Of a stretch of 64,000 nt of DNA, positions 12,134 to 53,132 are shown one piece after another. Within the stretch, counting starts at the first letter, position 1, and every line of letters begins with the position of its first letter. Both the position numbers and the translations under genes were made by a program. Location: contig JAJXVV010000003.1 in assembly GCA_021781955.1 (NCBI GenBank), positions 27,933 to 91,932 on the forward strand, written 5' to 3'. The notes under the pieces are model-generated. The model did not search any database. It saw only the letters and a list, made by a program, of their open reading frames with translations, and had not been told where the DNA came from. The stretch is from a bacterium. GTDB lineage: Bacteria; Patescibacteriota; Minisyncoccia; Phycocordibacterales; UBA2100.

Positions 12134-12219
12134 GGCGCGTCCGGACGGACACTTCCCGCGGAGGAACTGTCCGAGCGAAGCGAGTTTTCCGCAGCGGGAA
12201 GTGTCCGTCCGGACGCGCC
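12134..12219. repeat. hairpin repeat element copy 1 (26-bp perfect inverted arms, conserved 34-nt loop)
   Basis: Arms are ggcgcgtccggacggacacttcccgc and gcgggaagtgtccgtccggacgcgcc. The loop ggaggaactgtccgagcgaagcgagttttccgca is 30/34 identical to the loop of a second hairpin at 40736-40817. Intergenic between the adaptor and FtsX genes. Confidence 0.6.
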
Positions 12220-18445: not shown

Positions 18446-18870
18446 ACCTATATTCTGCCGAACTCGCGCAGCGAACGCTAACGGACGCGAGCGCTTGCAA
18501 ACGACGACAAACTGTTGTGTTATCCACAGCTCCCTCTTCCTGTCCAAAGACAATCTCCCCGGAATCCGTATGATGGAAGTACGCAGCTTACCGCGCGCCC
18601 TCACGAAGGGCCCGTAGGAAAGCGACGAGGCTGCAGGGCGCTACAGCCGCTGAGCAGAACCCTGCTCAGGCAAGGTGCGTAACACCGAAGACAGCGCTTC
18701 GGCCCTATCTTCAGACTCTGCGCTCCTTGGCCCTGATTCTCGGTCTCACGAAGACTCAGAATCCCAGAAAACAAAAACACGATTATTCACCGCGAGCGGT
18801 TCGCCGCTCTCGAATTAAGTGCTTTTGTTTGCGTGGGATTTTTTCTCGTGCACGCAAAGGCCTATGCACA

Positions 18871-20214
18871 ATGACCAATCAAGAATTGAAGATTACGTAT
18901 GTCCCCATTGAGACCCTTAAACACCCTGAACGGAATCCTCGCTTCTGGAGCAACGAGGTAAAGCTCCAGCTCAAAGAGAGCGTCACAAGACACGGGGTTG
19001 TCGACCCATTAATCATCAATACCGCGCCCGGCCGGGAGAACATCTGCATTGGTGGGAACTTGCGGTTGGAGGTCCTCAAAGAGCTCGGCCATAAAACAGT
19101 GCCGGTCGTCTCACTCTCCATCACCGACCCGAACAAGGAGCAGGAGCTCATATTGCGGTTGAATCGCAATGTCGCGGAGTTCGACGCGACGCTCCTCAGT
19201 GAGTTCGACGAGGCGTTCCTCAAAGACATCGGATTTTCGTCGGAAGAATTGGATGAGGTGTTTGAGGTCGAGAAAGACGAAGAACAATTCGACCTCGAAA
19301 AGGAATTAGACAAGCTCCAGATAGATCAGATCACCGTAGAGAAAGGAGACGTGTACGACCTCGATGGGTCACGTCTTAAATGCGGCGACTCTACTGTGGA
19401 GGCTGACGTGCTGGACCTAATGCGCGGAGAAAAAGCGGACATGTGCATGACCGACATGCCGTACCGCCTCAGTTACCTGAAGGGCAAAACGCGCAAAGGA
19501 AACCCAACGGTCGGCTTCGGTGCAAAAAGAAACCGCCGGTACCTCGAGACCGAGGCGCTGCCACCGGACTTCGTTGAGAAGTGGATGGGTAATGTTGCCA
19601 AGGTCGCTAACAAGGACTTTTCCATCATTTCCTACGAAAACTGGCGCAACATCCGCGAACAGTGGGACGTGATGGAGAAGCAAGGATGGAAGGTCCGCAA
19701 CATGATCGTCTGGCACCTCCCCACGAGGAACCAGGGCTATGCCGGCAAAAATATCTTGTTCTCGAAGCATGACATCGCGATGGTCGGCACGAGCGAAGCA
19801 CACAGCGGTCTCAACCTTGAGCCCGAGGACGGACTCTATGAGAACCAGTACGAAACTGCTCTCTTCGCGATCCAGGGTAAAGGTTCCCACTGGGAAAACT
19901 ACGGCAAAAACAAGAAGTACTGCCCGACGGATTTCATCGAGTTCAACGCAGCTGACGAGAAGTCTTCCGGGCAAGCGATCATCTACGGCGTAAAGCCGAT
20001 TGAGATCCTCCTGCCCTACATCAAAACGCTCACCAAGCGCGGTCAGCTCATCATTGAGCCCTTTGCGGGATCGGGTTCCACATTAATTGGAGCGAATACA
20101 CTTGGTCGCCGGTGCTTCGCGATGGAAAAAGTACCGACCTATGCCGAGGTCATCCTCAACCGATGGGAAAAGTTCTCTGGGAAGAAACGCGTAAAGATCC
20201 ATGCACAAGCGTGA
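18871..20214 (+). CDS. ParB-like nuclease domain / DNA methyltransferase fusion (beta-class N6A/N4C MTase)
   Basis: N-terminal ParB/Srx-like region (KITYVPIETLKHPERNPRFW...VVDPLIIN). Then DMPY (motif IV variant of DPPY) precedes the FAGSGST AdoMet-binding motif I, which is beta-class order. Common in phages and plasmids. Confidence 0.7.
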   Translation: MTNQELKITYVPIETLKHPERNPRFWSNEVKLQLKESVTRHGVVDPLIINTAPGRENICIGGNLRLEVLKELGHKTVPVVSLSITDPNKEQELILRLNRNVAEFDATLLSEFDEAFLKDIGFSSEELDEVFEVEKDEEQFDLEKELDKLQIDQITVEKGDVYDLDGSRLKCGDSTVEADVLDLMRGEKADMCMTDMPYRLSYLKGKTRKGNPTVGFGAKRNRRYLETEALPPDFVEKWMGNVAKVANKDFSIISYENWRNIREQWDVMEKQGWKVRNMIVWHLPTRNQGYAGKNILFSKHDIAMVGTSEAHSGLNLEPEDGLYENQYETALFAIQGKGSHWENYGKNKKYCPTDFIEFNAADEKSSGQAIIYGVKPIEILLPYIKTLTKRGQLIIEPFAGSGSTLIGANTLGRRCFAMEKVPTYAEVILNRWEKFSGKKRVKIHAQA

Positions 20215-21094
20215 TCAGATATCGGTACTTCTCAGCACGCTTGCTGAGGGACACACCATCACAGCCGCCTGCAAGCGAGCGGGTGTGTCCCGCATGTTCT
20301 ACGACCGCCACTACAAGAGCGACCTCGCGTTCAAGAAGCAGGTCGATGAAGTACGGAGAACCGGGCTTGAGACGAACAACGATCGCGTCGTCTCAGCCCA
20401 CATGAAGAAAATCAGTGACGGCGGCTGGCCTGCAATCAAGTACTACCTCGAACACAACGTCACTCCCTACAAGAAAATGGCCGACCGGCCCGAGCCCGTT
20501 CCTATGCACCCCGTACCGGAGACCCTCTCCGATGCCGAGGCATATGAGCAGTTCGTCCTTTGGAGCGCTCTCTCGCCCGAGGAGCGTTCCTGGCGTGGGA
20601 TTGAGACACGTGAGCAGTTCTGCAAAACCTACGGCGTTCCGAGCATCCGATTGCTTGATATCTGGGCACAGCGTCCAGACTTCGAACAACGCGTTGCCAC
20701 GCTCCGGGAAGACTGGATCATCCTCAAGACCGGTGAACTACTGGGCGACATCTATGGCGCTGCCCGAGGCGGTGATTTCAAGAGTCGGCGGCTCTGGCTG
20801 GAGTATGCCCGGCACATCAAGGAAAAGCGTGATGCTGCGGGACCGAAGCCGAATCTGATTTCGCCGGAGGACGTGCGCTACATAATCGGCATGTTGCCAG
20901 AAGCGCTACAGAATCTTAACTACATGCGCCTGGACAGCATCAGGGGTGACGTTGCCAGATACGAAAGAGAGCGGGAGCGTAAAGAGCATGAGCGGGCGGA
21001 GATTGAAGATCGAGCGAAGAAGGACGCTCTGATGGAGCACTACAGAAAGCCGGATGGAGAAATCGACTGGGGCGCGTATTCGGAGTCGTTGTAA
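20201..21094 (+). CDS. HTH DNA-binding protein (phage terminase small-subunit-like), hypothetical
   Basis: N-terminal HTH (TITAACKRAGVSRMFYDRHY). Translationally coupled to the MTase gene (14-nt overlap). The function call is weak. Confidence 0.4.
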   Translation: MHKRDQISVLLSTLAEGHTITAACKRAGVSRMFYDRHYKSDLAFKKQVDEVRRTGLETNNDRVVSAHMKKISDGGWPAIKYYLEHNVTPYKKMADRPEPVPMHPVPETLSDAEAYEQFVLWSALSPEERSWRGIETREQFCKTYGVPSIRLLDIWAQRPDFEQRVATLREDWIILKTGELLGDIYGAARGGDFKSRRLWLEYARHIKEKRDAAGPKPNLISPEDVRYIIGMLPEALQNLNYMRLDSIRGDVARYERERERKEHERAEIEDRAKKDALMEHYRKPDGEIDWGAYSESL

Positions 21095-21099
21095 CTTCT

Positions 21100-21309
21100 C
21101 TAGGGCCTCTTGCGAGGCAAAAAGAGCCGGAGCTGATGAGGAGGAGGAGGTGGTACCTCCTTGCGGTTTTCGACATGCCACAGAAGCTGGAGCAGCTTGA
21201 TGAGATGACCCCAGATCGCGTACGCCTCGCCGAGCGAGATATCGCGACCGGTCGCTTCCTTGATGATTCGGCGAAGCTCCTGGGCACTCTGGGGCGTAAG
21301 AATGGCCAT
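21100..21309 (-). CDS. small hypothetical protein (69 aa) with polyproline tail
   Basis: ATG-initiated ORF downstream of and co-oriented with the SHOCT gene, GC-rich third codon positions. An overlapping plus-strand ORF (21136-21327) is equally possible. Confidence 0.2.
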   Translation of the reverse strand: MAILTPQSAQELRRIIKEATGRDISLGEAYAIWGHLIKLLQLLWHVENRKEVPPPPPHQLRLFLPRKRP

Positions 21310-21353
21310 GGGGCCATTCCAGCTTAGATTCAGGCGTTTGCGAAGCGAGCTGT

Positions 21354-21815
21354 CTACAGCCCAAGTAGCTGTTTCTTCTTGGCCGAAAACTCCTCGTCGG
21401 TAAGGACGCCTTTGTCTTTGAGTGCAGCAAGTCTCTCCAGATCGTCGACACCACTCGCATGACCAGCAAATCGGCCGAACCGCGCGTCATTAATAGCTTG
21501 CTCCCATGAGAGGAAATGGCTCGGAGAGGCGGCGGCAAAAATGAGTTGCCGGCGATCGTGGTGCACGAACTTTGCACGGCGTTCGGTGTTACCGTCTTTG
21601 TAGACGATGAAAAGATTGTCTTTAAAGTCCATCTTTTCCGTATTGACGCTCACGATGTTCAAGAGCGGCACGCGCAACAGTTCCTGGTTACGTTTCTTCG
21701 AAAGGAAATATACGTCACTCCTTGTAAGGACCAGTGAGCCTCTATGTGCCTTATGCCAAAAGCCATTGTGCTGTATAAGGTTGTCCTCTTTCTTCAAAAC
21801 TTGCTCTTCCGCCAT
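21354..21815 (-). CDS. PH-like (bPH/GRAM-like) domain protein with C-terminal SHOCT domain
   Basis: The C-terminus DDLERLAALKDKGVLTDEEFSAKKKQLLG matches the SHOCT short C-terminal oligomerisation motif. Confidence 0.5.
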   Translation of the reverse strand: MAEEQVLKKEDNLIQHNGFWHKAHRGSLVLTRSDVYFLSKKRNQELLRVPLLNIVSVNTEKMDFKDNLFIVYKDGNTERRAKFVHHDRRQLIFAAASPSHFLSWEQAINDARFGRFAGHASGVDDLERLAALKDKGVLTDEEFSAKKKQLLGL

Positions 21816-21973
21816 ATCGTTATGGTTAGGTTAAATAAAGCCGACCTTGTGTTCCTAGCTTAGTTTCAAGACCTTGCGAAGCGGGTTACCAACTCTTGCC
21901 TTTGAAGGGTATTCGTAGCCTACCATAATATCTAAAGTTTGGATATTCAGTTCTTGGATAGACGCTTATTGGT

Positions 21974-22192
21974 ATGGGAAAGAGCATCCATACCAAGGAG
22001 TACAAGGTTTTTGTAGAGCGCCTGAAGAAGGCCCGGATTGAGGCTGGCCTGACTCAAGTGCAAGCAGCAAAGAAACTAGGCCGCCCGCAGTCGCACATTT
22101 CGAATGTTGAGACTGGCCAGCAGCGCGTGGATATAGTGGAGCTTAAGCGGTTTGCGAAGCTCTACGGGAAGAGTATCGAGTACTTCCTCTAA
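21974..22192 (+). CDS. XRE-family HTH transcriptional regulator (Cro/CI-like)
   Basis: 72 aa. HTH LTQVQAAKKLGRPQSHISNVETGQ. Confidence 0.7.
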   Translation: MGKSIHTKEYKVFVERLKKARIEAGLTQVQAAKKLGRPQSHISNVETGQQRVDIVELKRFAKLYGKSIEYFL

Positions 22193-22968
22193 AAACTTTC
22201 GGAATCAACGGCGAGCCCGATCTGCCTTCCAATTGGCTTTATTAGCTTCTCTTCCAAGAGAGGAAAGTAGCTTGGCATAAATCGAAAAAGGCCAACCTTA
22301 GGGTATCGAGCTTCAATCGTGCTCGAAAAGAAAGAGGCGGAGAGATCGTCGATAATGTATTCAAGATCCGGATCTAGCAGCACCTTCTCGACATCGAGTC
22401 TGCGGCAATGGTCGTAGAATTTTTTGTACTCGTGTCGGTATCTCTTCACTGTCTCAATAACCTTTAGCGGATCTTCCAGCTCTTTGAATAGGATGAACGA
22501 CGTAAGCAGCGATTCTATTCCCTGGGTTAAGAGAATTTCATACCGCCCGCTGTCTTCCTTCTTATGATACAGAAATTTCGCGGAATCGATACAGTCTCTT
22601 CCGGTCGTATAAAAAGAAACGACGAGATCATCACGCCTATTTTGCGTAAGGACTGTCTCGAGGAATTCATCGATTCCAATGTCAGCTTCTCCCTTTCGTC
22701 GACGAGGATAGAACGTCGAGAGTTGGTCATCGCGATACACCAAAAGATGTGGGTAAAGAATGCCGCTCCCTGTCTGCCGTATCTGAATCTTAGCCAGTAT
22801 CGATTCTTTTAAGAGCTCATCTTTTATCTTTTGCGCATGATCAGATTCGGATATGATCTCAGTCTCAGTTCTAATGGGTAAACTACTCTTTTCAATGTCA
22901 TCTAAGAGAGCCAGCGTCTTGGATACGTCGTCGTGGGGGTTATAAATCAAGCGGAATACTATTCTCAT
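22189..22968 (-). CDS. hypothetical protein, compositionally foreign (AT-rich)
   Basis: 259-aa ORF spanning a marked local GC drop (visibly A/T-rich codons against an otherwise ~60% GC background). No motif recognised. Convergent with and overlapping the XRE gene by 4 nt. Confidence 0.5.
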   Translation of the reverse strand: MRIVFRLIYNPHDDVSKTLALLDDIEKSSLPIRTETEIISESDHAQKIKDELLKESILAKIQIRQTGSGILYPHLLVYRDDQLSTFYPRRRKGEADIGIDEFLETVLTQNRRDDLVVSFYTTGRDCIDSAKFLYHKKEDSGRYEILLTQGIESLLTSFILFKELEDPLKVIETVKRYRHEYKKFYDHCRRLDVEKVLLDPDLEYIIDDLSASFFSSTIEARYPKVGLFRFMPSYFPLLEEKLIKPIGRQIGLAVDSESF

Positions 22969-33781: not shown

Positions 33782-35119
33782 TTGGGGTGTATGGACACCA
33801 TTACGAGGGCACCCCTGGGCGGTATTAGCAGGCAGGCCGTACAAGCGCCCGTAAGGATCAAATACTGCCTGTATGCAAGAAAGAGCACCGAGAGTGAGGA
33901 GCGGCAGGTGCTTTCGATAGATAGCCAGATCAAGGAGATGCTCCAGCTGGCCGACCGAGAAGGGCTTGAGGTAGTGGAGATGAAGCGCGAGTCTCACTCG
34001 GCAAAGGAAACTGGCAAGCGGCCGGTATTCAATGAGATCGTCGACGAGCTCCGGGCTGGCAAGTATAACGGTATCCTCACCTGGGCACCGGATCGTATCA
34101 GCCGTAACGCCGGGGACCTTGGCAAGATTGTCGACCTCATGGATGCGGGAGCATTGATGGAGATTCGCACATACGGTCAGAGTTTCAAGAATAATCCGAA
34201 TGAGAAGTTCCTTCTCATGATTCTCGGCTCGCAAGCCAAACTCGAGAACGACAATCGCGGAGTGAACGTGAAGCGCGGGTTGCGGACGCGCTGCGAGATG
34301 GGTTTGCGGCCGGGCGTAGCACCGGTCGGCTACAACAACGAGAAGCATGCTGACAAGAAGTGCCACGCAATCGTTGATCCGGCGCGCGCGCCGATCGTGA
34401 AGCAGATGTTTGAGAAAGTCGCCAACGAGAAGTGGAGCGGCAGGCGCATACACCAGTGGCTCAAGTTCGAGCTCAACTTCAAGAGTCGGGGCAACAAGAA
34501 CATGACGCTTAGCAGCGTGTACGTAGTACTCCAGAACCACTTCTACTACGGCATGTTTGAGTACCCGGTAAACAGCGGGAATTGGTACGAGGGCAGACAC
34601 CAGCCGCTCATCACCAAAGAATTGTTCGACAAGACGCAAGAGCAACTCAAGCGCGACCGGATCGTGCGCTCCGACATTAAGGAATTTGCCTTCACCAAGC
34701 TTATGGTATGCGGCCTGTGTGGCTCCGGCATCTCCGCTGACGAGAAGTTTAAGAAGCTCAAGGATGGAACCTCTAACCGCTATGTGTACTACGGCTGCAC
34801 CCGAGCGCGGGACAAGAGCTGTAAGGGCGGCTACGTGCGCGAGGAGGCGCTCATCGAGCAGATGGTGAAAGTGATGGACAAGGTCGATTTCAACAAGATG
34901 GCCATGCGTGACAAGTTCGAGGCCGAGGTAGAGCGCATGCGGAAGTTCCAGCGTGCATTCACTGGCGGAGATGATGCCAAACCACGGAAGGACATAGATC
35001 TGTGCGACTACGCGAAGTACCTGCTCAAGGAAGGCAGCGTTACGGAAAAACGAGAGCTGCTACTTTGCATCAAAAGCAAGCTGGTGCTTACCAGAAGCGA
35101 ATTGAAACTCGAAAACTAG
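33782..35119 (+). CDS. large serine recombinase (resolvase/integrase family)
   Basis: N-terminal resolvase domain with nucleophile context YARKSTESEE and a conserved GILTWAPDRISRN block, then a recombinase domain and a zinc-ribbon (CGLCGS...YYGC...C). About 445 aa. Confidence 0.8.
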   Translation: MGCMDTITRAPLGGISRQAVQAPVRIKYCLYARKSTESEERQVLSIDSQIKEMLQLADREGLEVVEMKRESHSAKETGKRPVFNEIVDELRAGKYNGILTWAPDRISRNAGDLGKIVDLMDAGALMEIRTYGQSFKNNPNEKFLLMILGSQAKLENDNRGVNVKRGLRTRCEMGLRPGVAPVGYNNEKHADKKCHAIVDPARAPIVKQMFEKVANEKWSGRRIHQWLKFELNFKSRGNKNMTLSSVYVVLQNHFYYGMFEYPVNSGNWYEGRHQPLITKELFDKTQEQLKRDRIVRSDIKEFAFTKLMVCGLCGSGISADEKFKKLKDGTSNRYVYYGCTRARDKSCKGGYVREEALIEQMVKVMDKVDFNKMAMRDKFEAEVERMRKFQRAFTGGDDAKPRKDIDLCDYAKYLLKEGSVTEKRELLLCIKSKLVLTRSELKLEN

Positions 35120-36052
35120 TTATCTAGAATCGAGGTCTCGCGTCTCGCCATTTATGTAATCAGGAATATCTCGGTTCTTTTCACTGATGATCCTTTCCAT
35201 CTCATCAATTTGACGAATTGTGGGTTTATCGTCGTGACGCATAGCAATTTGACGTCCTTTTGCAAGATATCGTTTTGCTGCTCGGAATCGATATGCAGTC
35301 TTCAGATCATTGGCTAAGTTATGGTATGCGATCGCGGCAAGAGGATCATTCAATTCCTCAAACAACGCTGCGGCAACAAGAAAGCTGTCGGTAAATTTCT
35401 TAACATGGGCATTTAATTTGCGGGCATCACCGTTTGAAAGCAGTAACAAATATTCAGGCAGAGGATAACGCATAAATTCGTATCTGCTCCAAAGTTTTGT
35501 TCGCAGACCACCGCGCATGCAAACGACCTTGTATTGTATATAACGAGAACTTTCAATGCTGCCTTTCGCCATTAAAACAAGTGCTTGAATTCTCTTATTT
35601 CCAGTTTGGTTTGCAAGTGAAATAGCATCGGCGAGCGAGCTATCAATCCCGGCTTCGAGTGTCTGCACTTCAGCAGATAATGAGTCAAACTCCTGTTTTT
35701 CAGCTTCGGTCGCAAACTCGACCCATCTTGGCGGGAGTTTTAGCATCGCCATTCGATGGCGACGCAGCACAACCTGATGCATTGACATATCTGCAAGGCG
35801 TCCCAAAAAATGAGCGCGAAGATCCTTTAAATTTAGTGCTGAGGTTATCTTTAACCCTTCTACGAGGAGAGCCAATATTTTCAGATTGTCTTCCACTGGA
35901 GATAGAACACCAATGGCTACATCGATAAATTGAAGGCGGGTGTGAGGATCTTTAATTTGAGGATCCAGCTTTAACAAGTTGGCACGCGCTTGAGTACGCT
36001 TGCCCTCCGACGCCAAAGTAAGCGCTTTTTTAATTTCATCTTTTTGTGACAT
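35120..36052 (-). CDS. hypothetical alpha-helical protein (third gene of HNH/DUF4238-like cassette)
   Basis: 310 aa. Lower GC than its surroundings. Its start overlaps the upstream gene end by 17 nt; its stop abuts the recombinase stop (convergent, 0-nt gap). Confidence 0.5.
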   Translation of the reverse strand: MSQKDEIKKALTLASEGKRTQARANLLKLDPQIKDPHTRLQFIDVAIGVLSPVEDNLKILALLVEGLKITSALNLKDLRAHFLGRLADMSMHQVVLRRHRMAMLKLPPRWVEFATEAEKQEFDSLSAEVQTLEAGIDSSLADAISLANQTGNKRIQALVLMAKGSIESSRYIQYKVVCMRGGLRTKLWSRYEFMRYPLPEYLLLLSNGDARKLNAHVKKFTDSFLVAAALFEELNDPLAAIAYHNLANDLKTAYRFRAAKRYLAKGRQIAMRHDDKPTIRQIDEMERIISEKNRDIPDYINGETRDLDSR

Positions 36053-36962
36053 GGCGATATTGGTACCACAATTTTAATTCATGCCAGCGCATCGAAGCTT
36101 GGTGTCGCAGTATTTTAAGAATAAAGAAAAAGTCCAGCGGATAGCGGCGGTACCAATGGCGACGAGCTCTTGAGCTGTTTGCTATAAAGTATTTATAAGA
36201 ATGCCCCACAGTCATACGGTTCGATTCCTCAACCTCAGTTTTATCCCTGAGTACATACCCCCGTAACGGGCTTCGGCTCATGCAAAGTAATATCTCTGGA
36301 GAAAGTGGAAGATACACCTCGACTCGTTCTTGCCCAAGGTCAGGACCGTAAGCACGCTGCCATTGGAGTTCAGGATTGAATACCTGACAAGGGTCGTCAG
36401 AGGTGATGTATTTTGCGCCCCCATCCGAACAGAGGAAGGCGATGTTCATATCCATGAGCATCATTGCCACATCAGGCAGGAGCTGAACGAAATTCAGCTT
36501 ATGGCCATTTTCCATTTCTTGCTTTAGGCCTTGGCGTTCTTCTGGAGTAACGTCGGGGCTCATTTGTTCCATCAACTGATCGTGAAAGCGCTGCATGTTA
36601 TCCCTGAAGCGTGGCGTACGTTGAAGCATCGCTGCAACGAATACACGTAACGTTATGCGTTCGTCTTCAGTGAGTGGTAATCGCTGACTGATCTTATCTT
36701 TGAAAAGAGCTGCATATTTTCCTTCAAGGGTCGCTAGCGTTTCTTCGATGGAATAGTTTTTCTCGCCAGACTTCAGCTTAAGCGTGTATAGATCCTTTTC
36801 AACGAAAACGTTCGTTATCGAACTTTTACGGCCCTTCTTCTCGCCTTTATTAAAAGTCCAGAGATAGGAGGTCTTTCTAAAAAGGAAGTCCGAAGCGGCC
36901 CACTCTCGTAGGTAGCATTGCGGAACGTAATGTTGTCTGGTTGGACCTTTTGCCACGACCAA
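36036..36962 (-). CDS. DUF4238-like protein (hypothetical)
   Basis: The N-terminus TRQHYVPQCYLREW matches the HYVPQ-YL motif I recall as defining DUF4238. TTG/GTG start with AGGGG about 7 nt upstream. AT-richer than the host background. Confidence 0.5.
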   Translation of the reverse strand: MVVAKGPTRQHYVPQCYLREWAASDFLFRKTSYLWTFNKGEKKGRKSSITNVFVEKDLYTLKLKSGEKNYSIEETLATLEGKYAALFKDKISQRLPLTEDERITLRVFVAAMLQRTPRFRDNMQRFHDQLMEQMSPDVTPEERQGLKQEMENGHKLNFVQLLPDVAMMLMDMNIAFLCSDGGAKYITSDDPCQVFNPELQWQRAYGPDLGQERVEVYLPLSPEILLCMSRSPLRGYVLRDKTEVEESNRMTVGHSYKYFIANSSRARRHWYRRYPLDFFFILKILRHQASMRWHELKLWYQYRHVTKR

Positions 36963-36990
36963 ACGATACCCCTACTTTGTCTTTTCCGCA

Positions 36991-37767
36991 CTAAGGAGCG
37001 AAAGGGTCTAGGGCATCATGATTTGGAGATACGTTCCTTTCGGAAATTCCCAGTGCTGCGCCCTGCGGGACAAGACCCGATGGAAGAACATAGAAACCTG
37101 CACAACCTCTCGCGTCTTGGTCGCGTACCTTACCCAAGTCTTTCCAATCGTAAACATCGAGCGCGAAGAAGCACATCCATGGACCGTTGTTATCCGCCTG
37201 ATTCCAAACACATTCATAGGTAAGATTACCTTTGTTACACTGGACTTTATCGAGATTGTTTTTCGCGCGATTGTCTTTTATAGCTTGAACGAATGCAGCG
37301 TGCTGAGGAAGGATCGGATCGATAACCGGCTTACCATGTACCATGCGCCCGCGAGGAAATGGGGTTACGAGTGCACAGTTATCTCGTATATCGAGCACCG
37401 GTTCTTTGTATAGAGCGGCATGAAAGCCGCTGATCCAGCGCCATACAGCTTCGTCAACATCCAAGTTCGTGAGGGCACCAAGTTGTGGATTTATGACCAG
37501 GCGGCGATGTTTCGGATCCGATGGTTTTTTGCCGTACCGAAGTGCGATAAGCTGGGCAATCTTTTCATCGGTTAAGGTGTGCGCACTGTTGCAAGCTTGG
37601 TGCGTCGGCAAAATCAAGGGATCTTTATGATCCGTTTGGAAGATAGAGTCGGGCGGAACATGATCGCGATTTTTGACATCTCCTGCCGCGAACATTTTCC
37701 CGCACAAATAGCAGAACGGAAGGTTCTGCACTGGGCGACGTTCAGTTTGCGTAATGAGCGAAATCAT
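36991..37767 (-). CDS. HNH-nuclease-domain protein (N-terminal HNH-like motif plus about 190-aa unknown C-terminal domain)
   Basis: C-x2-C ... NRDHVPP ... HQACNSAH follows the HNH pattern (Zn ligands plus catalytic His-Pro). Start at MISLITQ (cat at 37765-37767). The longer ORF-track version (to 38058) reads through tRNA-Ser and is an artefact. Confidence 0.5.
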   Translation of the reverse strand: MISLITQTERRPVQNLPFCYLCGKMFAAGDVKNRDHVPPDSIFQTDHKDPLILPTHQACNSAHTLTDEKIAQLIALRYGKKPSDPKHRRLVINPQLGALTNLDVDEAVWRWISGFHAALYKEPVLDIRDNCALVTPFPRGRMVHGKPVIDPILPQHAAFVQAIKDNRAKNNLDKVQCNKGNLTYECVWNQADNNGPWMCFFALDVYDWKDLGKVRDQDARGCAGFYVLPSGLVPQGAALGISERNVSPNHDALDPFAP

Positions 37768-37811
37768 ATTGAGTCGGACTATTTTACGACGAAAACGCCC
37801 CGACGTGGGAC

Positions 37812-37841
37812 GGTCGCGAAACACGGTCTCACGTTCCTGCG
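37812..37841. repeat. direct repeat copy B (abuts/overlaps by 2 nt the 3' end of tRNA-Ser)
   Basis: See copy A at 17241-17270. Confidence 0.6.
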
Positions 37842-37926
37842 GAGAGGGAGGGATTCGAACCCTCGATACCGTTTCCAGTATGCCGCATTTCGAGTGCGGT
37901 GCCTTCGACCACTCAGCCACCTCTCC
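37840..37926 (-). tRNA. tRNA-Ser (anticodon CGA), long variable arm, no encoded CCA
   Basis: Reverse complement folds as GGAGAGG / D-arm / CCGCA-CTCGAAA-TGCGG / 18-nt variable arm / GAGGG-TTCGAAT-CCCTC / CCTCTCC plus G. Confidence 0.85.
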
Positions 37927-38063
37927 CAGTACCACCCCGAAAGGGGTGGTCCTCCCGCAAAACGCGGGGAAAATGACCTGGCCACCATCAAAATAGCACA
38001 CTTTCGAGCCGTGAAAAAATGCGTTACACTGCAGACGATTCGCGCATGCTGCGAACAAAAGAC

Positions 38064-38135
38064 GGCCCTATCGTCTAGTGGTTAGGACAGCAGCTTTTCA
38101 AGCTGTTAACTCGGGTTCGATTCCCGATAGGGTCA
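38064..38135 (+). tRNA. tRNA-Glu (anticodon TTC), no encoded CCA
   Basis: GGCCCTA acceptor with D-arm GTCT/GGAC, anticodon arm GCAGC-TTTTCAA-GCTGT, T-arm TCGGG-TTCGATT-CCCGA, TAGGGTC plus A. Confidence 0.8.
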
Positions 38136-39992: not shown

Positions 39993-40853
39993 ATGCGGCA
40001 AACGCGCGACATCATGGGCATGCCGGTCATCGTCGAGATAGTCGGCGGCGATGAGGCCGCGCTCGAGGCGGTGTTCGCCTACTTCCGCGGGATCGATGAG
40101 CAGTTCAGCCCGTACAAAAAAGAAAGCGAGGTCTCGCGCCTCAGCGACGGCCGCCTTGCTAAGAGCGCCGCTTCGCGCGAGATGCGTGAGGTGCTTTTGC
40201 TCGCCGAACAAACCAAGCGCGAGACGAACGGCTATTTCGATATTTACACGCCGAGCGGTTCGTTCGACCCTTCCGGCCTCGTGAAAGGTTGGGCGATCCA
40301 AAAAGCCGCACAGCTTTTGCATGACAGGGGGCATCATAATTTCTGGGTCGAAGCGGGCGGCGACATCCAAACCTCCGGCCGCAACGCTGAAGGCGGCGAG
40401 TGGAGCGCCGGCATCCGCAATCCGTTCAATTCGTCCGAGATCGTGAAGGTCGTCTATCCGCGTGGCGCAGGCATCGCGACATCCGGCACCTACGTCCGCG
40501 GCAGCCACATCTACGATCCGCACCTGGGAGCTCCGGTGCGTTCCGAGCTCGTGAGCCTTACCGTTATCGGGAAAAACGTCTACGAGGCCGACCGCTTCGC
40601 CACGGCGGCTTTCGCCATGGGGCGTGACGGCATGTACTTCATCGAGCAGCACCCGGAACTCGAAGGCTACGCCATTGACGTACAGTGCCGCGCCACGCTC
40701 ACGAGCGGTTTTGCCGGATACACAATCGCTGCAAAGCCGTCCGGCGCGAAAGTTCTTGCAGAGGAACTGCCCGAGCGAAGCGAGTTTTCCGACGCAGGAA
40801 CCTTCGTGCCGGACGGCTCTCGGATATCATTACCGACGTATGCCACTTCGTAA
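39993..40853 (+). CDS. apbE: FAD:protein FMN transferase (ApbE family)
   Basis: ApbE family blocks (MGMPVIVEI, GYFDIY, GLVKGWAIQKAA, FWVEAGGDI, ATSGTYVRG). The C-terminal 30 aa are encoded by hairpin repeat copy 2. Confidence 0.7.
   Translation: MRQTRDIMGMPVIVEIVGGDEAALEAVFAYFRGIDEQFSPYKKESEVSRLSDGRLAKSAASREMREVLLLAEQTKRETNGYFDIYTPSGSFDPSGLVKGWAIQKAAQLLHDRGHHNFWVEAGGDIQTSGRNAEGGEWSAGIRNPFNSSEIVKVVYPRGAGIATSGTYVRGSHIYDPHLGAPVRSELVSLTVIGKNVYEADRFATAAFAMGRDGMYFIEQHPELEGYAIDVQCRATLTSGFAGYTIAAKPSGAKVLAEELPERSEFSDAGTFVPDGSRISLPTYATS
40736..40817. repeat. hairpin repeat element copy 2 (24-bp imperfect inverted arms, conserved 34-nt loop)
   Basis: Arms are gccgtccggcgcgaaagttcttgc and gcaggaaccttcgtgccggacggc (21/24 complementary). 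The loop agaggaactgcccgagcgaagcgagttttccgac is 30/34 identical to copy 1. Lies inside the apbE 3' end and just upstream of the next gene's start. Confidence 0.6.
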
Positions 40854-43103: not shown

Positions 43104-43169
43104 GCAATGAAACGGTCGTGTCGCGGCGCGCTCCTTGCGGAGCGCGCCGCTTTTTTGGATACTGGTGCG

Positions 43170-43799
43170 ATGAACGATGAACAGCAGGCACTGAAAGTGC
43201 TCGCGCGCGATCCGCGATTCAAGAAACTCATCGCCAAGCACGGTGCGCCCGTATGGCGGCCGCGCGGCACAGCGTTCCGTTCGCTCGCGCGCGCCATCAT
43301 CCACCAGCAAGTATCGACCGCAGCCGCGAAGAGCATCGAGAGAAAATTCCTTTCGCTGTTCCCGCGCGACTCCTTCCCGACCCCCGCGCGCGTGGCGGCG
43401 CTTTCGGTACACCAGCTGCGCGCGGCGGGACTTTCCGCACAAAAGGCAACGTACCTGCACGACCTCGCGGCGAAATTCTCGGACGGTACGGTACGGCATC
43501 GCAAGCTTCCGTACATGACCAACGACGAAATAGTCGAGCACCTCACAAAGGTCAAAGGTATCGGCGTGTGGACCGTGCACATGTTCCTCATCTTTACCTT
43601 GCGCCGACCGGACGTGCTCCCCGTCGGCGATCTCGGTATCCGCAAGGGCTTCCAGGCGATATATGGATCGAAAACGTTGCCCGATGCTGCGGAAATGGAG
43701 CGGCGTGCGGCCGCCTGGCGGCCGCACGCCTCAGTAGCAAGCTGGTACCTCTGGCGCGCTGCTGGCGACGCGGCGACCGCGCGCCAGAAACGTTCCTAG
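43170..43799 (+). CDS. DNA-3-methyladenine glycosylase II-like (HhH-GPD family, AlkA-like)
   Basis: HhH-GPD region (LTKVKGIGVWTVHMFLIF...PVGDLGIRKG) with the catalytic Asp context. Start at MNDEQQ (alternative at 43107). Confidence 0.65.
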   Translation: MNDEQQALKVLARDPRFKKLIAKHGAPVWRPRGTAFRSLARAIIHQQVSTAAAKSIERKFLSLFPRDSFPTPARVAALSVHQLRAAGLSAQKATYLHDLAAKFSDGTVRHRKLPYMTNDEIVEHLTKVKGIGVWTVHMFLIFTLRRPDVLPVGDLGIRKGFQAIYGSKTLPDAAEMERRAAAWRPHASVASWYLWRAAGDAATARQKRS

Positions 43800-44466: not shown

Positions 44467-45099
44467 TCAAATACCGGCCGCAACAAAGACCTCCGGGGCA
44501 GGAACGACGCCTTCGCGCAAGATAACGACGCCAGAAGCGCAGTCGATGACCGTGGAAGGCGCGGCTGGAGGCAAAACGCCTCCATCGATGACGAGCGAGA
44601 TGCTTGATACGGCTTCGCCGAGCTGGATGAGGATGTCGTCGATGCGGCGCGGCGCAGCCGCGCCGCTCACGTTCGCGCTCGTCGCCGTGACGGGAGTTCC
44701 GAAAACGCGGGTGAGCGCCACGCAAAAATCGTGATCGGGTATGCGGAAACCGAACGTCGCTCTGCCTTTCGCGATGCCCGCGTCCAAGCCGATTCGTTTC
44801 TTCACGACGAACGTCGCCTTCCCTTTCGGCAAACGCTCGGCCAGCCGCCGCGCCGTATCGTTCACTTCGCCGTACCGCTCGGCCATCGCGAGATCGGCGA
44901 CGATCGCGTGCATCGGCTTGTCGTCCCGCCGCCCCTTTAACGCGTACACTTTCGCGACAGCTTCATCAGAAAGTGCGTCTGCGCCGAGGCCGTACAGGGT
45001 GTCGGTCGGATACAGCACGACCCCTCCGGCACGCAATGCGGCGGCCGCCTTGGCGGCCGCCGCATCGATACCCGCCTCCGCAAGTGAAATGCGTTCCAT
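44467..45099 (-). CDS. tsaC: L-threonylcarbamoyladenylate synthase (TsaC/YrdC/Sua5 family)
   Basis: YrdC-fold blocks (VVLYPTDTLYGLG, ATSANVSG, STVIDC). Confidence 0.8.
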   Translation of the reverse strand: MERISLAEAGIDAAAAKAAAALRAGGVVLYPTDTLYGLGADALSDEAVAKVYALKGRRDDKPMHAIVADLAMAERYGEVNDTARRLAERLPKGKATFVVKKRIGLDAGIAKGRATFGFRIPDHDFCVALTRVFGTPVTATSANVSGAAAPRRIDDILIQLGEAVSSISLVIDGGVLPPAAPSTVIDCASGVVILREGVVPAPEVFVAAGI

Positions 45100-47056: not shown

Positions 47057-48103
47057 ATGCGGATACTCGGCGTCGAGACCAGCTGCGACGAAACGGCCAT
47101 TTGCCTTATCGAGGCCAGTGGCGAGTTCGGTCCTGCGTTCAGATTCAGCGTGCTTGGCGACACGCTCGCCTCACAGGCAACGCTGCACGCGCAGTATGGC
47201 GGCGTGTTCCCCAATCTCGCGAAGCGCGAACACCTCAAGAACCTGCCGGTGCTTTATGAGGCGGTGCAGAAACAGGTTGGCGGTGTGAAGCCGGACGCGA
47301 TCGCGGTCACGGTCGGGCCAGGGCTTGAGCCGTGTCTGTGGACGGGGATCAATTTCGTGCAGAGGCTCGCCGATGAGTCGAAAGCGCCTGTCGTCGGCGT
47401 CGATCACATGGAGGGACACATCATGCTCTCGATGATGGCCCACGGAAAACTGTCTGACTTCGAGTTCCCCGTGCTCGCTCTCCTCATTTCCGGCGGCCAC
47501 ACGGAACTCGTCGTGATGCGCTCCTTCGGCGAGTACGAGGTGGTCGGGCGCACGCGCGACGATGCGGCTGGCGAGGCGTTCGACAAGGTCGCGCGATTGC
47601 TCAGCCTGCCGTATCCGGGCGGGCCGGAGATATCGCGCATTGCGCGGGCCGCCCGTTCCGCGGGCGGCCCGCGCCTCTACAACCTTCCGCGTCCGATGCT
47701 CCACGAAAATAATCTCGACTTTTCGTTCTCCGGCCTCAAGACCGCCGTACGGCGGCAGGTCGAAGACAAATCAGTCACCGACGATGAGCGCGCCGCGCTC
47801 GCGCGCGAGTTCGAGGACGCGGTCGCCGACGTGCTCGTCGGCAAAGCGATGCGTGCCATCGACGAGTACGGCATCAACACGCTCGTCGTGGGCGGCGGCG
47901 TTTCTGCCAACGACTATATTCGTGAGCGGCTGAAGACCGCGCTGGAAAACGAAGGCAACATCGCCAAGCTCCTCGTCCCTCCACCGGAGCTCGCCACCGA
48001 CAACGCACTCATGATCGCGCTCGCCGGCTACTTCCACGCGCAGAAGAAAGAATTTACCGACCCGTCGTCGCTCACCGCCGACGGCAACCTCGCGCTTGGC
48101 TAA
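47057..48103 (+). CDS. tsaD: tRNA N6-adenosine threonylcarbamoyltransferase
   Basis: MRILGVETSCDETA N-terminus and Kae1/TsaD family blocks (metal-binding HMEGH, GGVSAN). Confidence 0.9.
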   Translation: MRILGVETSCDETAICLIEASGEFGPAFRFSVLGDTLASQATLHAQYGGVFPNLAKREHLKNLPVLYEAVQKQVGGVKPDAIAVTVGPGLEPCLWTGINFVQRLADESKAPVVGVDHMEGHIMLSMMAHGKLSDFEFPVLALLISGGHTELVVMRSFGEYEVVGRTRDDAAGEAFDKVARLLSLPYPGGPEISRIARAARSAGGPRLYNLPRPMLHENNLDFSFSGLKTAVRRQVEDKSVTDDERAALAREFEDAVADVLVGKAMRAIDEYGINTLVVGGGVSANDYIRERLKTALENEGNIAKLLVPPPELATDNALMIALAGYFHAQKKEFTDPSSLTADGNLALG

Positions 48104-48119
48104 TTCGTGCTATAACTTC

Positions 48120-50312
48120 GCCATGGAACCGTCCAAGGCGCCTGAAGCGTTCTTGAGGCCCTACAACCCGGCCGAGCAGGAACCGCGCATGCTTGAGCTG
48201 TGGGAAGACAGCGGCTACGCCAATCCAGACGTCTGTGTCGAGAAAGGCGTCATCGAGCCTGATGCCGAACCCTATTCAATAGTATTGCCGCCGCCCAACG
48301 TGACCGGCACGCTTCACATGGGACATGCCGCGATGCTCGCTATCGAAGACATCCTCATCCGCTACCACCGCATGCGCGGGTACAAGACCCTTTGGTTGCC
48401 CGGCACCGATTCGGCCGCCATCGCCACGCAATCAAAAGTTGAAACGGATATCTACAAGAAGGAAAAGAAGACCCGGCACGACCTCGGCCGCGAGGAGCTG
48501 CTCAAACGCATCGAGCAATTCACCGACGAGAGCAAGGCGACGATCATCAACCAAACGAAGAAGATGGGCAGCTCGCTCGATTGGAGTCGCTACGCCTACA
48601 CGATGGACGAGGAGCGGTATGCGGCCGTCATGGAAGCGTTCGTGCGCATGTACGATGCGGGCCTTATTTATCGCGGCGACCGCATCGTCAATTGGGACCC
48701 GAAATTGCAGACGACCGTCTCCGACGACGAAATCGAGCACGTCGAACAGAAAGACCCATTTTTCCATTTCAAGTACGGCCCGTTCGACATCGGTACCGTA
48801 CGCCCTGAGACGAAGTTCGTCGACAAGTACGTCGTCATGCATCCCGAAGACGAGCGTTACGCGCAGTACAAGCATGGCCAAACGATCGAGGTGGAGTGGA
48901 TCAACGGCCCTATTACGGCAACCATCATTAAAGACAAGGCGGCCGACATGAGCTTCGGTTCGGGCGTGATGACCATTACGCCCGCGCACTCGGCCATCGA
49001 CTTCGAGATCGCGCAGCGCCATGGGCTCGACATGGAGCGCGTGATCGACGACCGGGGTATTTTGCTGCCCATCGCGGGCGAGTTCGCCGGCATGCACATT
49101 AAGAAGGCGCGCGCGCTCATCGTCGACAAGCTCAAGGCCAAGGGCTTGATCGCGAAGGTGGACGAAGGCTACATGCACAACGTCGCGACCAACAGCCGTG
49201 GCGGCGGCATTATCGAGCCGCAGATCAAGCGCCAATGGTTCATCGCGGTCAATAAGAAAGCGAAGTTCCCCGACGGCAAAACGCGCACGCTCAAGGAGTG
49301 GATGCGGCACGCGGTCGAGAGCGGCGAGGTCGGCATCATGCCAGAGCGTTTCGAGAAAATTTACTACCACTGGATCGACAACCTGCGTGACTGGTGCATC
49401 TCGCGGCAAATATGGTTCGGTCACCGCATCCCCGCATGGTTCAAAGATGACGAGGTGAAAGTGCAGGCCGGCTCGCCGGGCGAGGGTTGGGAACAGGACC
49501 CCGACACGCTCGATACCTGGTTCTCGTCCGGCCTGTGGACATTTTCCACGCTCGGCTGGCCGGATGATACGCACGACATGAAGACCTACCACCCGACCTC
49601 CGTACTTGAGACCGGCTACGACATCCTCTTCTTCTGGGTCGCGCGCATGGTGCTCATGAGCGGATTCTTGCTCGGCGAGGTCCCCTTCCGCAAGGTCTAC
49701 CTGCACGGCCTTGTGCGCGACGGATCGGGCCGCAAGATGAGCAAATCGCTCGGCAACATCATCGACCCGCTCACGATGGTCGAGAAGTACGGCGCCGACG
49801 CCGCGCGCCTTTCGCTCGTCATCGGCGCTTCGATGGGCAACGACGTGAAGCTCTCGGAAGACCGCGTGCGCGGCTACAAACATTTCGGCAACAAGGTCTG
49901 GAACATCGCGCGCTTCGTGCTCGAGAATCAGCAAGACCCCAGAGGACCGTCCTCTGGGCGTCCAGAGGACGGTCCTCTGGGCGAGGAGGATAGGCTGCTT
50001 ATCGTCGAGGCGCACACGGTCGCCAAGCAGGTATCCGAGCACATCGACCGCTTCCGCCTCGACCTCGCGGCCGATCAGGTCTACCACTTCGTGTGGGACC
50101 GCTTCGCGGCAGAAATACTCGAAAGCTCGAAACCGATACTGAAAGGCGATGATGCGGCGGCCCGCCAAGGGCGGGCCGCCGCCCTCTCCGAGATACTCGG
50201 CATCTCGCTCAAAATCCTTCACCCCTTCATGCCCTTCGTCACTGAGGCAATCTGGCAGCAGCTGCCGCAGAAGGAGTCCGACCTCCTCATGGTGGCGAAA
50301 TGGCCGGTCTAG
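48120..50312 (+). CDS. valS: valyl-tRNA synthetase (short form, no C-terminal coiled-coil)
   Basis: HMGHA (HIGH-class motif in PPPNVTGTLHMGHA), KMSKS, and editing-domain and anticodon-binding blocks typical of ValRS. About 730 aa. Confidence 0.85.
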   Translation, partial: AMEPSKAPEAFLRPYNPAEQEPRMLELWEDSGYANPDVCVEKGVIEPDAEPYSIVLPPPNVTGTLHMGHAAMLAIEDILIRYHRMRGYKTLWLPGTDSAAIATQSKVETDIYKKEKKTRHDLGREELLKRIEQFTDESKATIINQTKKMGSSLDWSRYAYTMDEERYAAVMEAFVRMYDAGLIYRGDRIVNWDPKLQTTVSDDEIEHVEQKDPFFHFKYGPFDIGTVRPETKFVDKYVVMHPEDERYAQYKHGQTIEVEWINGPITATIIKDKAADMSFGSGVMTITPAHSAIDFEIAQRHGLDMERVIDDRGILLPIAGEFAGMHIKKARALIVDKLKAKGLIAKVDEGYMHNVATNSRGGGIIEPQIKRQWFIAVNKKAKFPDGKTRTLKEWMRHAVESGEVGIMPERFEKIYYHWIDNLRDWCISRQIWFGHRIPAWFKDDEVKVQAGSPGEGWEQDPDTLDTWFSSGLWTFSTLGWPDDTHDMKTYHPTSVLETGYDILFFWVARMVLMSGFLLGEVPFRKVYLHGLVRDGSGRKMSKSLGNIIDPLTMVEKYGADAARLSLVIGASMGNDVKLSEDRVRGYKHFGNKVWNIARFVLENQQDPRGPSSGRPEDGPLGEEDRLLIVEAHTVAKQVSEHIDRFRLDLAADQVYHFVWDRFAAEILESSKPILKGDDAAARQGRAAALSEILGISLKILHPFMPFVTEAIWQQLPQKESDLLMVAKWPV
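49939..49980. repeat. tandem pair of a palindromic 19-mer (ccagaggaccgtcctctgg and its reverse complement), in-frame inside valS
   Basis: Two hairpin-forming units separated by gcgt. Encodes PRGPSSGRPEDGPL within ValRS. A third copy is at 52218-52236. Confidence 0.7.
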
Positions 50313-51533: not shown

Positions 51534-51560
51534 AAAAAGGCGCCCCCGGGCGCCTTTTTC
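51534..51560. terminator. bidirectional Rho-independent terminator
   Basis: aaaaaGGCGCCCccGGGCGCCttttt. Serves the hsp20 gene (plus) and the minus-strand gene ending at 51582. Confidence 0.8.
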
Positions 51561-51581: not shown

Positions 51582-52217
51582 TCAAGCGAGGTTCAATTTT
51601 GCCAACGCCTGGCGGACTTGTCGCCTCAACACCCAATTGCCGAGGGGAATGAACGCGTACGCCCACAACAACACAGCGGCCCCTAACGAACCCAGCACGA
51701 GCGCGTCAAAATCCGGCGACGGCCACGGCCTGAAATAGTGGATGATAGCCGCACTGAACACGAACGCACATCCACTCCATGTCAGGAAGTGGCGTTCACT
51801 TCTTGACGCCATCCACTGGGCCGCAGGACGCACCTTCCGGATTGCGCGTTCAATGATGGCAGGCGCCAACACGAACGCTCCATCGGGTCTTATTGAGCCA
51901 AGATTGGGCGTAAGCGCGTACGCCTTGCCGTCCTGCCATCCAACAAGGAAGACCTCCCGTCCCAGACCAAAAACGTGCACGCTCTCGAACTCTTCAAAGA
52001 AGTCTTTCATGTTCTCTCCCGTCTCGAGCGCGAACGTCAGCTCGATCCGATTACGAGATCGTCGATCCTGCGAGCAGACTTCAATGGAATAGTCGAACGC
52101 GGCACGCAACACGTCAAGGTGCGCAGTCTCGAGCCCTTTCATTGCCTTATCCCTTCTTTCTTTACAAGCAGCCCAGATTGAAGCACAGAAGGCGCGCTTG
52201 CACAAACCGATCCTCAC
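51582..52217 (-). CDS. hypothetical membrane protein
   Basis: 211 aa with a TM segment near the C-terminus. No motif recognised. Confidence 0.4.
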   Translation of the reverse strand: MRIGLCKRAFCASIWAACKERRDKAMKGLETAHLDVLRAAFDYSIEVCSQDRRSRNRIELTFALETGENMKDFFEEFESVHVFGLGREVFLVGWQDGKAYALTPNLGSIRPDGAFVLAPAIIERAIRKVRPAAQWMASRSERHFLTWSGCAFVFSAAIIHYFRPWPSPDFDALVLGSLGAAVLLWAYAFIPLGNWVLRRQVRQALAKLNLA

Positions 52218-52236
52218 CCAGAGGACCGTCCTCTGG
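52218..52236. repeat. palindromic 19-mer ccagaggaccgtcctctgg (third copy)
   Basis: Identical to the unit inside valS. Intergenic between two minus-strand genes. Confidence 0.65.
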
Positions 52237-52244
52237 AGAAGAGG

Positions 52245-53132
52245 TCACGAGGTCCGCAAATCCTCGTCTGTCGGAAAATCATCGTTGAGGAGGCCTATCT
52301 TGTAGATGTCGAAACTGTTATCTCCTTCGAACATATCCGAAGGATTCGGGAGATAGATGCGCGGGCGGGAGATCTCGGCCGTCGCATCCCGAATGAGCCG
52401 GTGGAAGAGCCGGAATTCCTCATCGAAATGCGTGAAGTCGATGACGTAGCGGCGCAATTGCGGCGAACCGTCGGCATTCTTGCGCTTCTTGAGCTCGTGA
52501 TAGATGAAGCGGCGTACCGGCTTTTGGAACAGCTCGCGCACGGTGTAGTAGTTGAATATCGCCTGGAGCACGAAGAGCGGCTTGTCTTGCTTGAGCGATG
52601 AGAACGAGTCCACGAATTTGTGATCGACGATATCGAACGCGCCGCGCTCCACTTTTGATCGCACGACGAGGTCCGAGACGGCCTTCAGGGGCAGCGGCAG
52701 GCCCTCGACTTCGACCATGCCCTTCACCTCAACGCCCACCACCTCGAAGCGCGGCGGCCGTTCCAGGTAAAAACCGATGGCCTGGAGATATTCGCGCTCC
52801 ATAGAGGCGCGTTTCTTTTTCTTGGCCGCGCGCGTCTTCGCTTTGCCGAAATTGATCTCAAGATCGGGCACCGCGCGCAAATATTCGAGCCCGAGCTCGA
52901 TGGCGCCCTCTTTGCCGATACCGCCATAAAAATGCTGGAGCGCGATGTGACCCGCGCGCCCGACCACGCCTGCAGGCGAGGAGGGCGTATCGTACACATG
53001 TTCGACATAGCGCTTGTACCAGGCCAAGGGATTCCGCAAGAAAGCCGCGAGCGACGAATGGCTCCAGTACTTGATGGGCGGCTTCCCTTCCGTTGGCATT
53101 GGGTGAGTATACCTCGTTTGACGCTCATTCAT
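52245..53132 (-). CDS. PD-(D/E)xK-superfamily nuclease-like protein (Cas4/RecB-like N-terminal region, no Fe-S Cys cluster)
   Basis: YWSHSSLAAF..NPLAWYKRYV N-terminus, AGHIALQ, and a D..D.K element (DIVDHKFV) fit the PD-(D/E)xK pattern. Confidence 0.45.
   Translation of the reverse strand: MNERQTRYTHPMPTEGKPPIKYWSHSSLAAFLRNPLAWYKRYVEHVYDTPSSPAGVVGRAGHIALQHFYGGIGKEGAIELGLEYLRAVPDLEINFGKAKTRAAKKKKRASMEREYLQAIGFYLERPPRFEVVGVEVKGMVEVEGLPLPLKAVSDLVVRSKVERGAFDIVDHKFVDSFSSLKQDKPLFVLQAIFNYYTVRELFQKPVRRFIYHELKKRKNADGSPQLRRYVIDFTHFDEEFRLFHRLIRDATAEISRPRIYLPNPSDMFEGDNSFDIYKIGLLNDDFPTDEDLRTS

Follow-up and report, generated by a model that had tools for sequence, protein, structure and literature searches.

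The window analysed here is a stretch of 64,000 nt from a bacterial genome assembly (GCA_021781955.1, contig JAJXVV010000003.1, positions 27,933 to 91,932 of the forward strand). Its gene for valine–tRNA ligase (valS, encoding ValRS) harbors a perfect 44-nt palindrome made up of two inverted copies of a 19-nt hairpin unit, and a third copy of the unit lies between two genes 2.2 kb from this doublet. We contend, with a probability of about one half, that the valS element represents a REPIN-like family of palindromic repeats, present at low copy number, that is either mobile or subject to ectopic conversion. The doublet keeps the reading frame within a permissive loop, its insert is missing from the nearest relatives, and identical units occur elsewhere, which together argue for a repeat that is copied between sites at the DNA level and tolerated where it is harmless. 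The mobility of the element, the enzyme or process that would move it and its neutrality are what we infer from these observations.

Anatomy of the valS palindrome

The features on which the argument depends are the following.

48123–50312, plus strand: valS (valine–tRNA ligase, 729 aa), host gene of the doublet, from open reading frame (ORF), translation and domains
49926–49982, plus strand: loop codons, ValRS residues 602–620, between helices 579–601 and 621–642 of the anticodon-binding helical domain
49938–49981, plus strand: perfect 44-nt palindrome from hairpin scans, an inverted doublet encoding PRGPSSGRPEDGPL (nt 49938–49979)
49939–49957, plus strand: unit copy 1, CCAGAGGACCGTCCTCTGG, centre C; the palindrome extends to 49938–49958
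49962–49980, plus strand: unit copy 2, CCAGAGGACGGTCCTCTGG, centre G, inverted orientation
52211–52237, minus strand: third copy, with the 19-mer at 52218–52236; 26 of 27 nt equal those of 49961–49987, in inverted orientation

All three copies of the 19-mer that a preliminary description of this DNA had reported were found, at 49939–49957, 49962–49980 and 52218–52236. The pair inside valS had been called a tandem separated by GCGT; the spacer stands, whereas the copies are inverted and not tandem, since their centres are opposite (C, then G). Together with its flanks the doublet forms a single perfect 44-nt palindrome, its 20-bp stem closed by a GCGT loop, as seen in the hairpin scans. Each unit is a 9-bp stem around a single central base, in place of the 8-bp stem originally given, and copy 1 reaches 10 bp (CCCAGAGGAC-C-GTCCTCTGGG). 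Counted strand by strand, the 19-mer has 6 matches in the window against 0.01 expected from shuffles, and the window scan revealed neither degenerate extra copies nor an excess of half-sites. The RNA hairpin of the palindrome is predicted at about -47 kcal/mol, and the surrounding 91-nt region at -53 kcal/mol (z = -5.6).

The palindrome contains zero stop codons across all three frames. Its 42 nt at 49938–49979 encode, in frame, the peptide PRGPSSGRPEDGPL as ValRS residues 606–619, followed by GEEDRLL; the first description of the downstream flank, EEDRLL, had omitted one G.

Host gene and protein loop

The gene call for valS carries the Pfam domains tRNA-synt_1 and Anticodon_1, and its product aligns over residues 12–728 with the ValRS of Thermus thermophilus (1GAX, E = 1.7e-162). 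The best homologues come from Candidatus Kaiserbacteria, Parcubacteria and Patescibacteria, the top non-self match having 85% identity; judged by these affinities, the host is a Kaiserbacteria-like bacterium of the Candidate Phyla Radiation (CPR). NCBI assembly GCA_027428515.1 (contig DAICBG010000008.1) matches the window.

In an AlphaFold2 model of the protein (m9c84521a72de, mean predicted local distance difference test score, pLDDT, of 74), residues 606–616 have a pLDDT below 50. The helices on either side (579–601 and 621–642) are the first two after the KMSKS region, at the start of the anticodon-binding domain, and in the alignment to 1GAX the insert sits in a gap beside T. thermophilus residues 594–600. 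According to the model and the comparison with relatives, the insert occupies a disordered, permissive, length-variable surface loop, which bears out the earlier suggestion of a tolerated loop at the anticodon-binding domain.

With its 729 aa, the window ValRS stops at the equivalent of residue 706 of the 862-aa T. thermophilus enzyme, and all of the 120 close relatives are similarly short (703–835 aa). The missing C-terminal region presumably includes the coiled coil.

The valS loop in relatives

Across 119 relatives, 31–63 residues separate the anchors NKxWNIxRFV and DxFRLDLA. The closest ValRS relatives (83–85% identity) are without the insert, namely P0002 and P0006 (both LEYPEQGEMNDG...) and P0004 (LENPAEGTGELLADD), and the proposal that the insert is lineage-specific is thereby upheld by the ortholog alignment. 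The claim that 14 residues had been added needs qualification: they are encoded in frame, whereas the net gain over relatives is about 7–11 residues and not exactly 14, because the length of the loop is variable.

A hairpin at this position (site 1) is present in 9 of the 10 loci sampled, that is, in the window and in 8 of the 9 relatives with DNA, and mostly as inverted doublets of lineage-specific units. The loci and their ValRS proteins are as follows.

L033 (P0005, of 84% identity and sharing the ENQQD flank): two inverted ACAAGTC-W-GACTTGT units 4 nt apart, giving a 15-bp stem
L034 (P0023): paired ATCGGGATTT-CGT-AAATCCCGAT units, forming a doublet with a 23-bp stem
L022 (P0110): paired TGGAGGTT-S-AACCTCCA units, forming a doublet with a 23-bp stem
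L009 (P0027): hairpin with a 13-bp stem
L020, L006, L007 and L021 (P0065, P0096, P0041 and P0107): doublets of CCAAGGTC-S-GACCTTGG, intact to decayed
L019 (P0004): no hairpin at site 1

The inverted doublets of the window, L007, L022, L033, L034, L006 and L020 have spacers of 0 to about 11 nt, and the copies in L006, L007 and L021 are decayed. The inserts of the window and L033 occupy the same position and the same 42 nt, with about 21% identity against about 80% in their flanks (counted by eye).

A further test used proteins only and asked whether codon choices exist that would make the loop DNA a perfect hairpin, with 20-residue windows as controls. A potential stem of at least 15 bp was obtained for 16 of 119 loops against 0.6% of the control windows, and one of at least 13 bp for 30 of 119 against 5.4%, figures that are undercounts in that some decayed doublets are missed. 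These sequence comparisons make the valS loop a hotspot for palindromes in Kaiserbacteria-like ValRS, and the doublet is not peculiar to the window gene. A neighbor-joining tree of 120 ValRS was too star-like for counting independent gains. The colonisation of an essential synthetase gene had been presented as unusual, a view to be corrected in the light of other palindromes in the same loop of many relatives as well as in tsaD, tsaC and an HhH-GPD gene.

Units shared between loci

The third copy, which had been reported as an identical 19-mer between two genes, is indeed intergenic, while the match turns out to be longer (26 of 27 nt). It lies 8 nt 3' of the stop codon of a gene for a PD-(D/E)XK nuclease (52245–53132, minus strand), with the start of a hypothetical gene (51582–52142, minus strand) following about 76 nt downstream of it. 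Neither a terminator-like T tract nor a promoter match was found at this copy, and its candidacy as a terminator or operator was rejected for lack of a consensus match. As a separate observation, the end of the nuclease ORF (52245–52290) runs about 10 residues beyond that of its relatives (...IYKIGLLNDDFPTDEDLRTS versus ...IYRLGLIE); this extension is hairpin-rich sequence adjoining the third copy, and the original stop codon of the nuclease seems to have been replaced by the repeat region.

Units are also shared between genes among the relatives. Locus L007 carries a perfect 48-nt inverted doublet of CCAAGGTCSGACCTTGG within tsaD (residues 87–102, in frame) and, 3.3 kb away, a decayed doublet of the same unit in valS. 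Similarly, the unit TGGAGGTTCAACCTCCA (TGGAGGTTSAACCTCCA) is present in both the tsaD of L021 and the valS of L022. The units of the window, L007, L021 and L022 have the core AGGNN-S-NNCCT in common, with arms that are lineage-specific, and this core is enriched in each of the carrier loci (2–4 observed versus 0.1–0.8 in shuffles).

Other perfect palindromes in the window and in relatives

Perfect hairpins with stems of 10 bp or more number 10 in the ORFs of the window, where codon shuffles give 0.57, and those with stems of 12 bp or more number 7 against 0, the ORF set having been picked greedily by length such that a few hairpins may fall in over-extended 5' ends. Besides the valS doublet at 49938–49981, these palindromes include the following.

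43702–43730: palindrome in the HhH-GPD gene, from gene calls
44644–44666 and 45036–45065: palindromes in tsaC/Sua5, from gene calls
47642–47674, plus strand: perfect palindrome in the neighbouring gene tsaD with a 14-bp stem, in the loop before the LPRPM motif, where L020 and L021 have other palindromes
50154–50182, plus strand: perfect palindrome in valS (site 2) with a 13-bp stem, encoding AAARQGRAAA

Those in the HhH-GPD gene, tsaC/Sua5 and tsaD have stems of 10–14 bp, many with CGGCCG, and their translations are rich in Ala, Arg and Gly; relatives have different palindromes at the matching sites of tsaD (two sites) and tsaC. A further GC-rich perfect palindrome stands at 43123–43150.

Site 2 of valS was considered as an insertion and rejected as such, the segment having equal length in 6 of the 7 relatives compared. 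At this site the perfect 13-bp stem of the window differs from those of L019 and L009, which also differ from one another, and this implies paired changes on both arms. In L019 (JGI Ga0480578_0000621), a 35-nt perfect palindrome with a 16-bp stem (9529–9563) interrupts tsaD in the loop before LPRPM and introduces a TAA stop and a +1 shift, so that the gene is called as two ORFs of 245 and 136 aa. Possible readings are recoding, a pseudogene, a split gene or a sequencing error at the palindrome. The frame break points to a process that ignores the reading frame, with selection doing the filtering.

Proposed origin and alternative explanations

Under the proposal of a REPIN-like repeat, the unit would be a 19–21-nt hairpin with one asymmetric central base, within a loose family of small units in Kaiserbacteria-like genomes. 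Copying at the DNA level would have put the doublet into the valS loop, or would have overwritten an older palindrome there, the likely processes being hairpin-dependent transposition, or ectopic conversion together with template switching between palindromes. Its persistence in an essential gene can be attributed to a length that keeps the frame, to the absence of a stop in any frame and to the disordered, length-variable loop. The Pro/Gly/Ser/Arg-rich stretch of 14 residues is most likely without adaptive function.

Several observations weigh against this proposal. The source genome has 2 loci (3 units) in the 73.4 kb examined, 9.4 kb of which lie beyond the window (rpoB, rpoC, dnaG) and gave no copy of the unit. 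No PF01797-type or other HUH/RAYT transposase was detected in the gene calls of window positions 38–64 kb, in the 9.4 kb beyond or in 20 further selected window ORFs. The copies are flanked by no target-site duplication, direct repeat or conserved motif, and the 27-nt match of the third copy takes in 7–8 nt at native valS codon positions, a pattern more in keeping with the copying of patches than with cuts at fixed ends of the element. In a sample that consists of the valS neighbourhood, 2 of the 3 units lie inside valS and the units of relatives in valS and tsaD, at odds with the mainly extragenic location of REPs and REPINs. The similar-length inserts at one position in several lineages may go back to a single old insertion that was rewritten in place. 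Outside the source lineage, the exact 19-mer has 4 hits in 185,579 GTDB species genomes against about 4.3 by chance (our own estimate, 596 Gb / (4^19/2)), 9 loci in JGI metagenomes, mostly AT-rich terminators and five of them the same locus, and none in IMG/VR; at such a chance level it provides no evidence of the element beyond its source lineage. Nor could contig L001 be accepted as a second host: its direct 19-mer doublet (36–80, 26-nt period, just upstream of uvrA), the only other one found, is taken as coincidence, given that its UvrA groups with Terriglobia/Acidobacteriota proteins and places it in an Acidobacteriota genome.

The units of the relatives gave 4 single hits each in IMG/VR. 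All three reading frames of the doublet were compared with a set of 5.8 billion proteins; no match came back, the source ValRS being missed as well, and this result therefore says nothing on the distribution of the peptide. In unrelated AT-rich contigs (L002, L010, L012–L014 and L016–L018) the 19-mer is the stem of terminator hairpins with a T tract. Two more contigs, L011 and L015, were tried as relatives and dismissed, having no similarity to Kaiserbacteria loci. The occurrence of the 19-mer in terminators and in L001 is convergence and not homology.

A different account dispenses with a dedicated mobile element and holds that template switching in place (quasipalindrome correction or fold-back copying) makes and refreshes palindromes at stall-prone permissive sites, the doublet then stemming from a single hairpin copied off the nascent or complementary strand; template switching may make doublets out of single hairpins in this manner. 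The creation and upkeep of perfect stems by this route are documented (PMC8794818), and the account agrees with intact stems that are perfectly Watson–Crick paired with zero G–T pairs, with the extension of the palindrome in each instance by its own flanking bases, with site 2 palindromes that differ among the window, L019 and L009 at unchanged length, with the unique GC-rich palindromes in tsaC, tsaD and the HhH-GPD gene, with the excess of perfect ORF stems over codon shuffles (10 of at least 10 bp versus 0.57), and with the frame break in the tsaD of L019, which is expected from frame-blind mutation. It does not, however, readily explain identical units of 17–27 nt that lie 2.2–3.3 kb apart in one genome, and it offers no explanation for one unit occurring in two genes of separate genomes (tsaD of L021, valS of L022). 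We regard this account, the main rival of the proposed repeat family, as possible in a tentative sense. It can also be speculated, with somewhat greater reserve, that Kaiserbacteria-like CPR genomes run an active and hitherto undescribed DNA-level process that rewrites perfect palindromic doublets at fixed permissive loops (valS, tsaD, tsaC). Such a process might depend on a nuclease or transposase specific to hairpins, or on unusually frequent template switching where palindrome-removing nucleases are missing from the lineage. If so, the protein sequence of these loops would arise by palindrome turnover and not by point mutation, at times splitting a gene, as in the tsaD of L019.

The hairpin might alternatively be functional, as an mRNA structure slowing translation where the anticodon-binding domain begins or as a site for a dimeric protein, with the intergenic copy serving as operator or terminator. 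That 9 of the 10 sampled valS loci have a hairpin at this position, with differing sequences, resembles covariation, the folded form is highly stable at about -47 kcal/mol, and the intergenic copy, 8 nt past a stop and with a gene start about 76 nt downstream, is placed as would suit a regulatory role; yet the hairpin is missing from many close relatives, the nearest ones included, copies have decayed in L006, L007 and L021, there is no Rfam family, T tract or promoter match, and the same units occur in the unrelated loop of tsaD. A functional origin is therefore improbable in our judgement. Palindromes are known problem spots for library preparation and assembly, and a fold-back chimera, for example, could produce a spurious inverted duplication. 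Against such an artefact, an identical ValRS product is encoded on 11 contigs from several assemblies, an independent ENA assembly (L032) includes the intergenic copy, the reading frame is intact, and relatives from other studies have the same doublet architecture at the same codon position. The 11 contigs and the ENA assembly make unlikely the mis-assembly that the preliminary description had wished to exclude, and an artefact is scarcely credible.

Other features of the window

A second repeat family consists of hairpins of about 84 nt at 12134–12219 and 40735–40818. Their apical 30 nt match at 29 of 30 positions (GAGGAACTGYCCGAGCGAAGCGAGTTTTCCG), and their lower stems differ by compensatory changes. 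One of them is intergenic and the other forms the last ~30 codons, at the C-terminus, of an ApbE ORF; the family has no Rfam match. Directly after hsp20, at 51534–51559, stands AAAAAGGCGCCCCCGGGCGCCTTTTT, a hairpin with a 12-bp stem between A and T runs that looks like a bidirectional intrinsic terminator.

A large serine recombinase (33782–35119), together with DUF4238 and unknown ORFs, lies beside tRNA genes (37840–37926 and 38064–38135), which suggests that 33782–38135 is an integrated element. The region 17690–22968 contains a ParB-N/N6_N4 DNA methylase fusion (18727–20214), an XRE-like helix-turn-helix protein and a SHOCT protein, and this suggests a second mobile island.

Implications

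If confirmed genome-wide, the valS element would be the second case of selfish palindromic DNA in essential genes after the Rickettsia palindromic elements (RPEs), independent of them and much smaller in scale. No description of such repeats in the CPR was found in the literature searched. The loci offer a system for asking how perfect palindromes are created, copied and kept perfect, via transposition or template switching, as well as how a small genome tolerates perfect palindromes of 34–49 bp and how new sequence arises in the surface loops of conserved enzymes. There are practical consequences too. Such loops distort the aminoacyl-tRNA synthetase and tsaD alignments that are used as phylogenetic markers, and such palindromes can split genes in annotation and are places where assemblies and polymerases may fail.

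Comparison with known systems

Intrinsic terminators share the identical 19-mer as a stem, followed by T runs, in the unrelated AT-rich metagenome contigs; in contrast, the T tract is missing at all three window copies, none of the three drew a terminator call, and two of them lie within an ORF. The single Rfam 15 match, to a microRNA family, was below threshold (24.9 bits versus a gathering score of 92), and the whole window gave tRNAs only. Miniature inverted-repeat transposable elements are recognised by terminal inverted repeats and a target-site duplication, whereas here the entire element is palindromic and no direct repeat flanks it.

Template switching, or quasipalindrome mutation, creates and maintains perfect stems, and the likeness extends to perfect stems from single events, stem extension and paired changes on both arms, as at site 2 of valS (PMC8794818). 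It is nevertheless a local mutational process that yields no repeat family and does not predict a shared unit at distant loci. The second arm of the valS palindrome is the exact reverse complement of the first, and a REPIN-like doublet would look identical.

REPINs are overwhelmingly extragenic; a genome contains tens to hundreds of them, with spacers tens of bases long, along with a single-copy RAYT flanked by REPs (PMC3337134; PMC3116915; PMC5581495). The valS element resembles REPs and REPINs in being a short palindrome whose asymmetric centre marks its orientation, in the inverted pair that makes a longer hairpin, and in having genome-specific variants (PMC3337134). Its units have 9-bp arms around a central C or G, and the inverted doublet layout recurs in L007, L022, L033 and L034. 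The differences are that the units here are mostly intragenic and seen at low copy number, that spacers measure 0–11 nt and that no RAYT was found in the regions searched. The original label of REP-like may be retained for the architecture only.

RPEs measure about 100–150 bp, encode conserved peptides of 30–50 residues and form defined families, of which a genome can contain dozens of copies (Ogata et al., 2000, summarised in PMC10969869). They too are in-frame palindromic repeats in unrelated housekeeping genes of a small-genome, host-dependent bacterium, translated as extra peptides where the fold permits, with intergenic copies as well (PMC10969869). The valS insertion is likewise translated with its host protein (42 nt, 14 residues, ORF intact), and so is the doublet in the tsaD of L007. 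In contrast to RPEs, the units here are 15–23 nt long, the doublets 34–49 nt and the peptides 7–16 residues, their sequence depends on the lineage, and there are 2 loci in 73 kb. The element has no sequence similarity to RPEs, and at 44 nt in a Kaiserbacteria-like CPR host it departs from their length of about 100–150 bp and from the Rickettsia family consensus. The valS element departs from both families in defining features, and is RPE-like in its behaviour and REPIN-like in its architecture.

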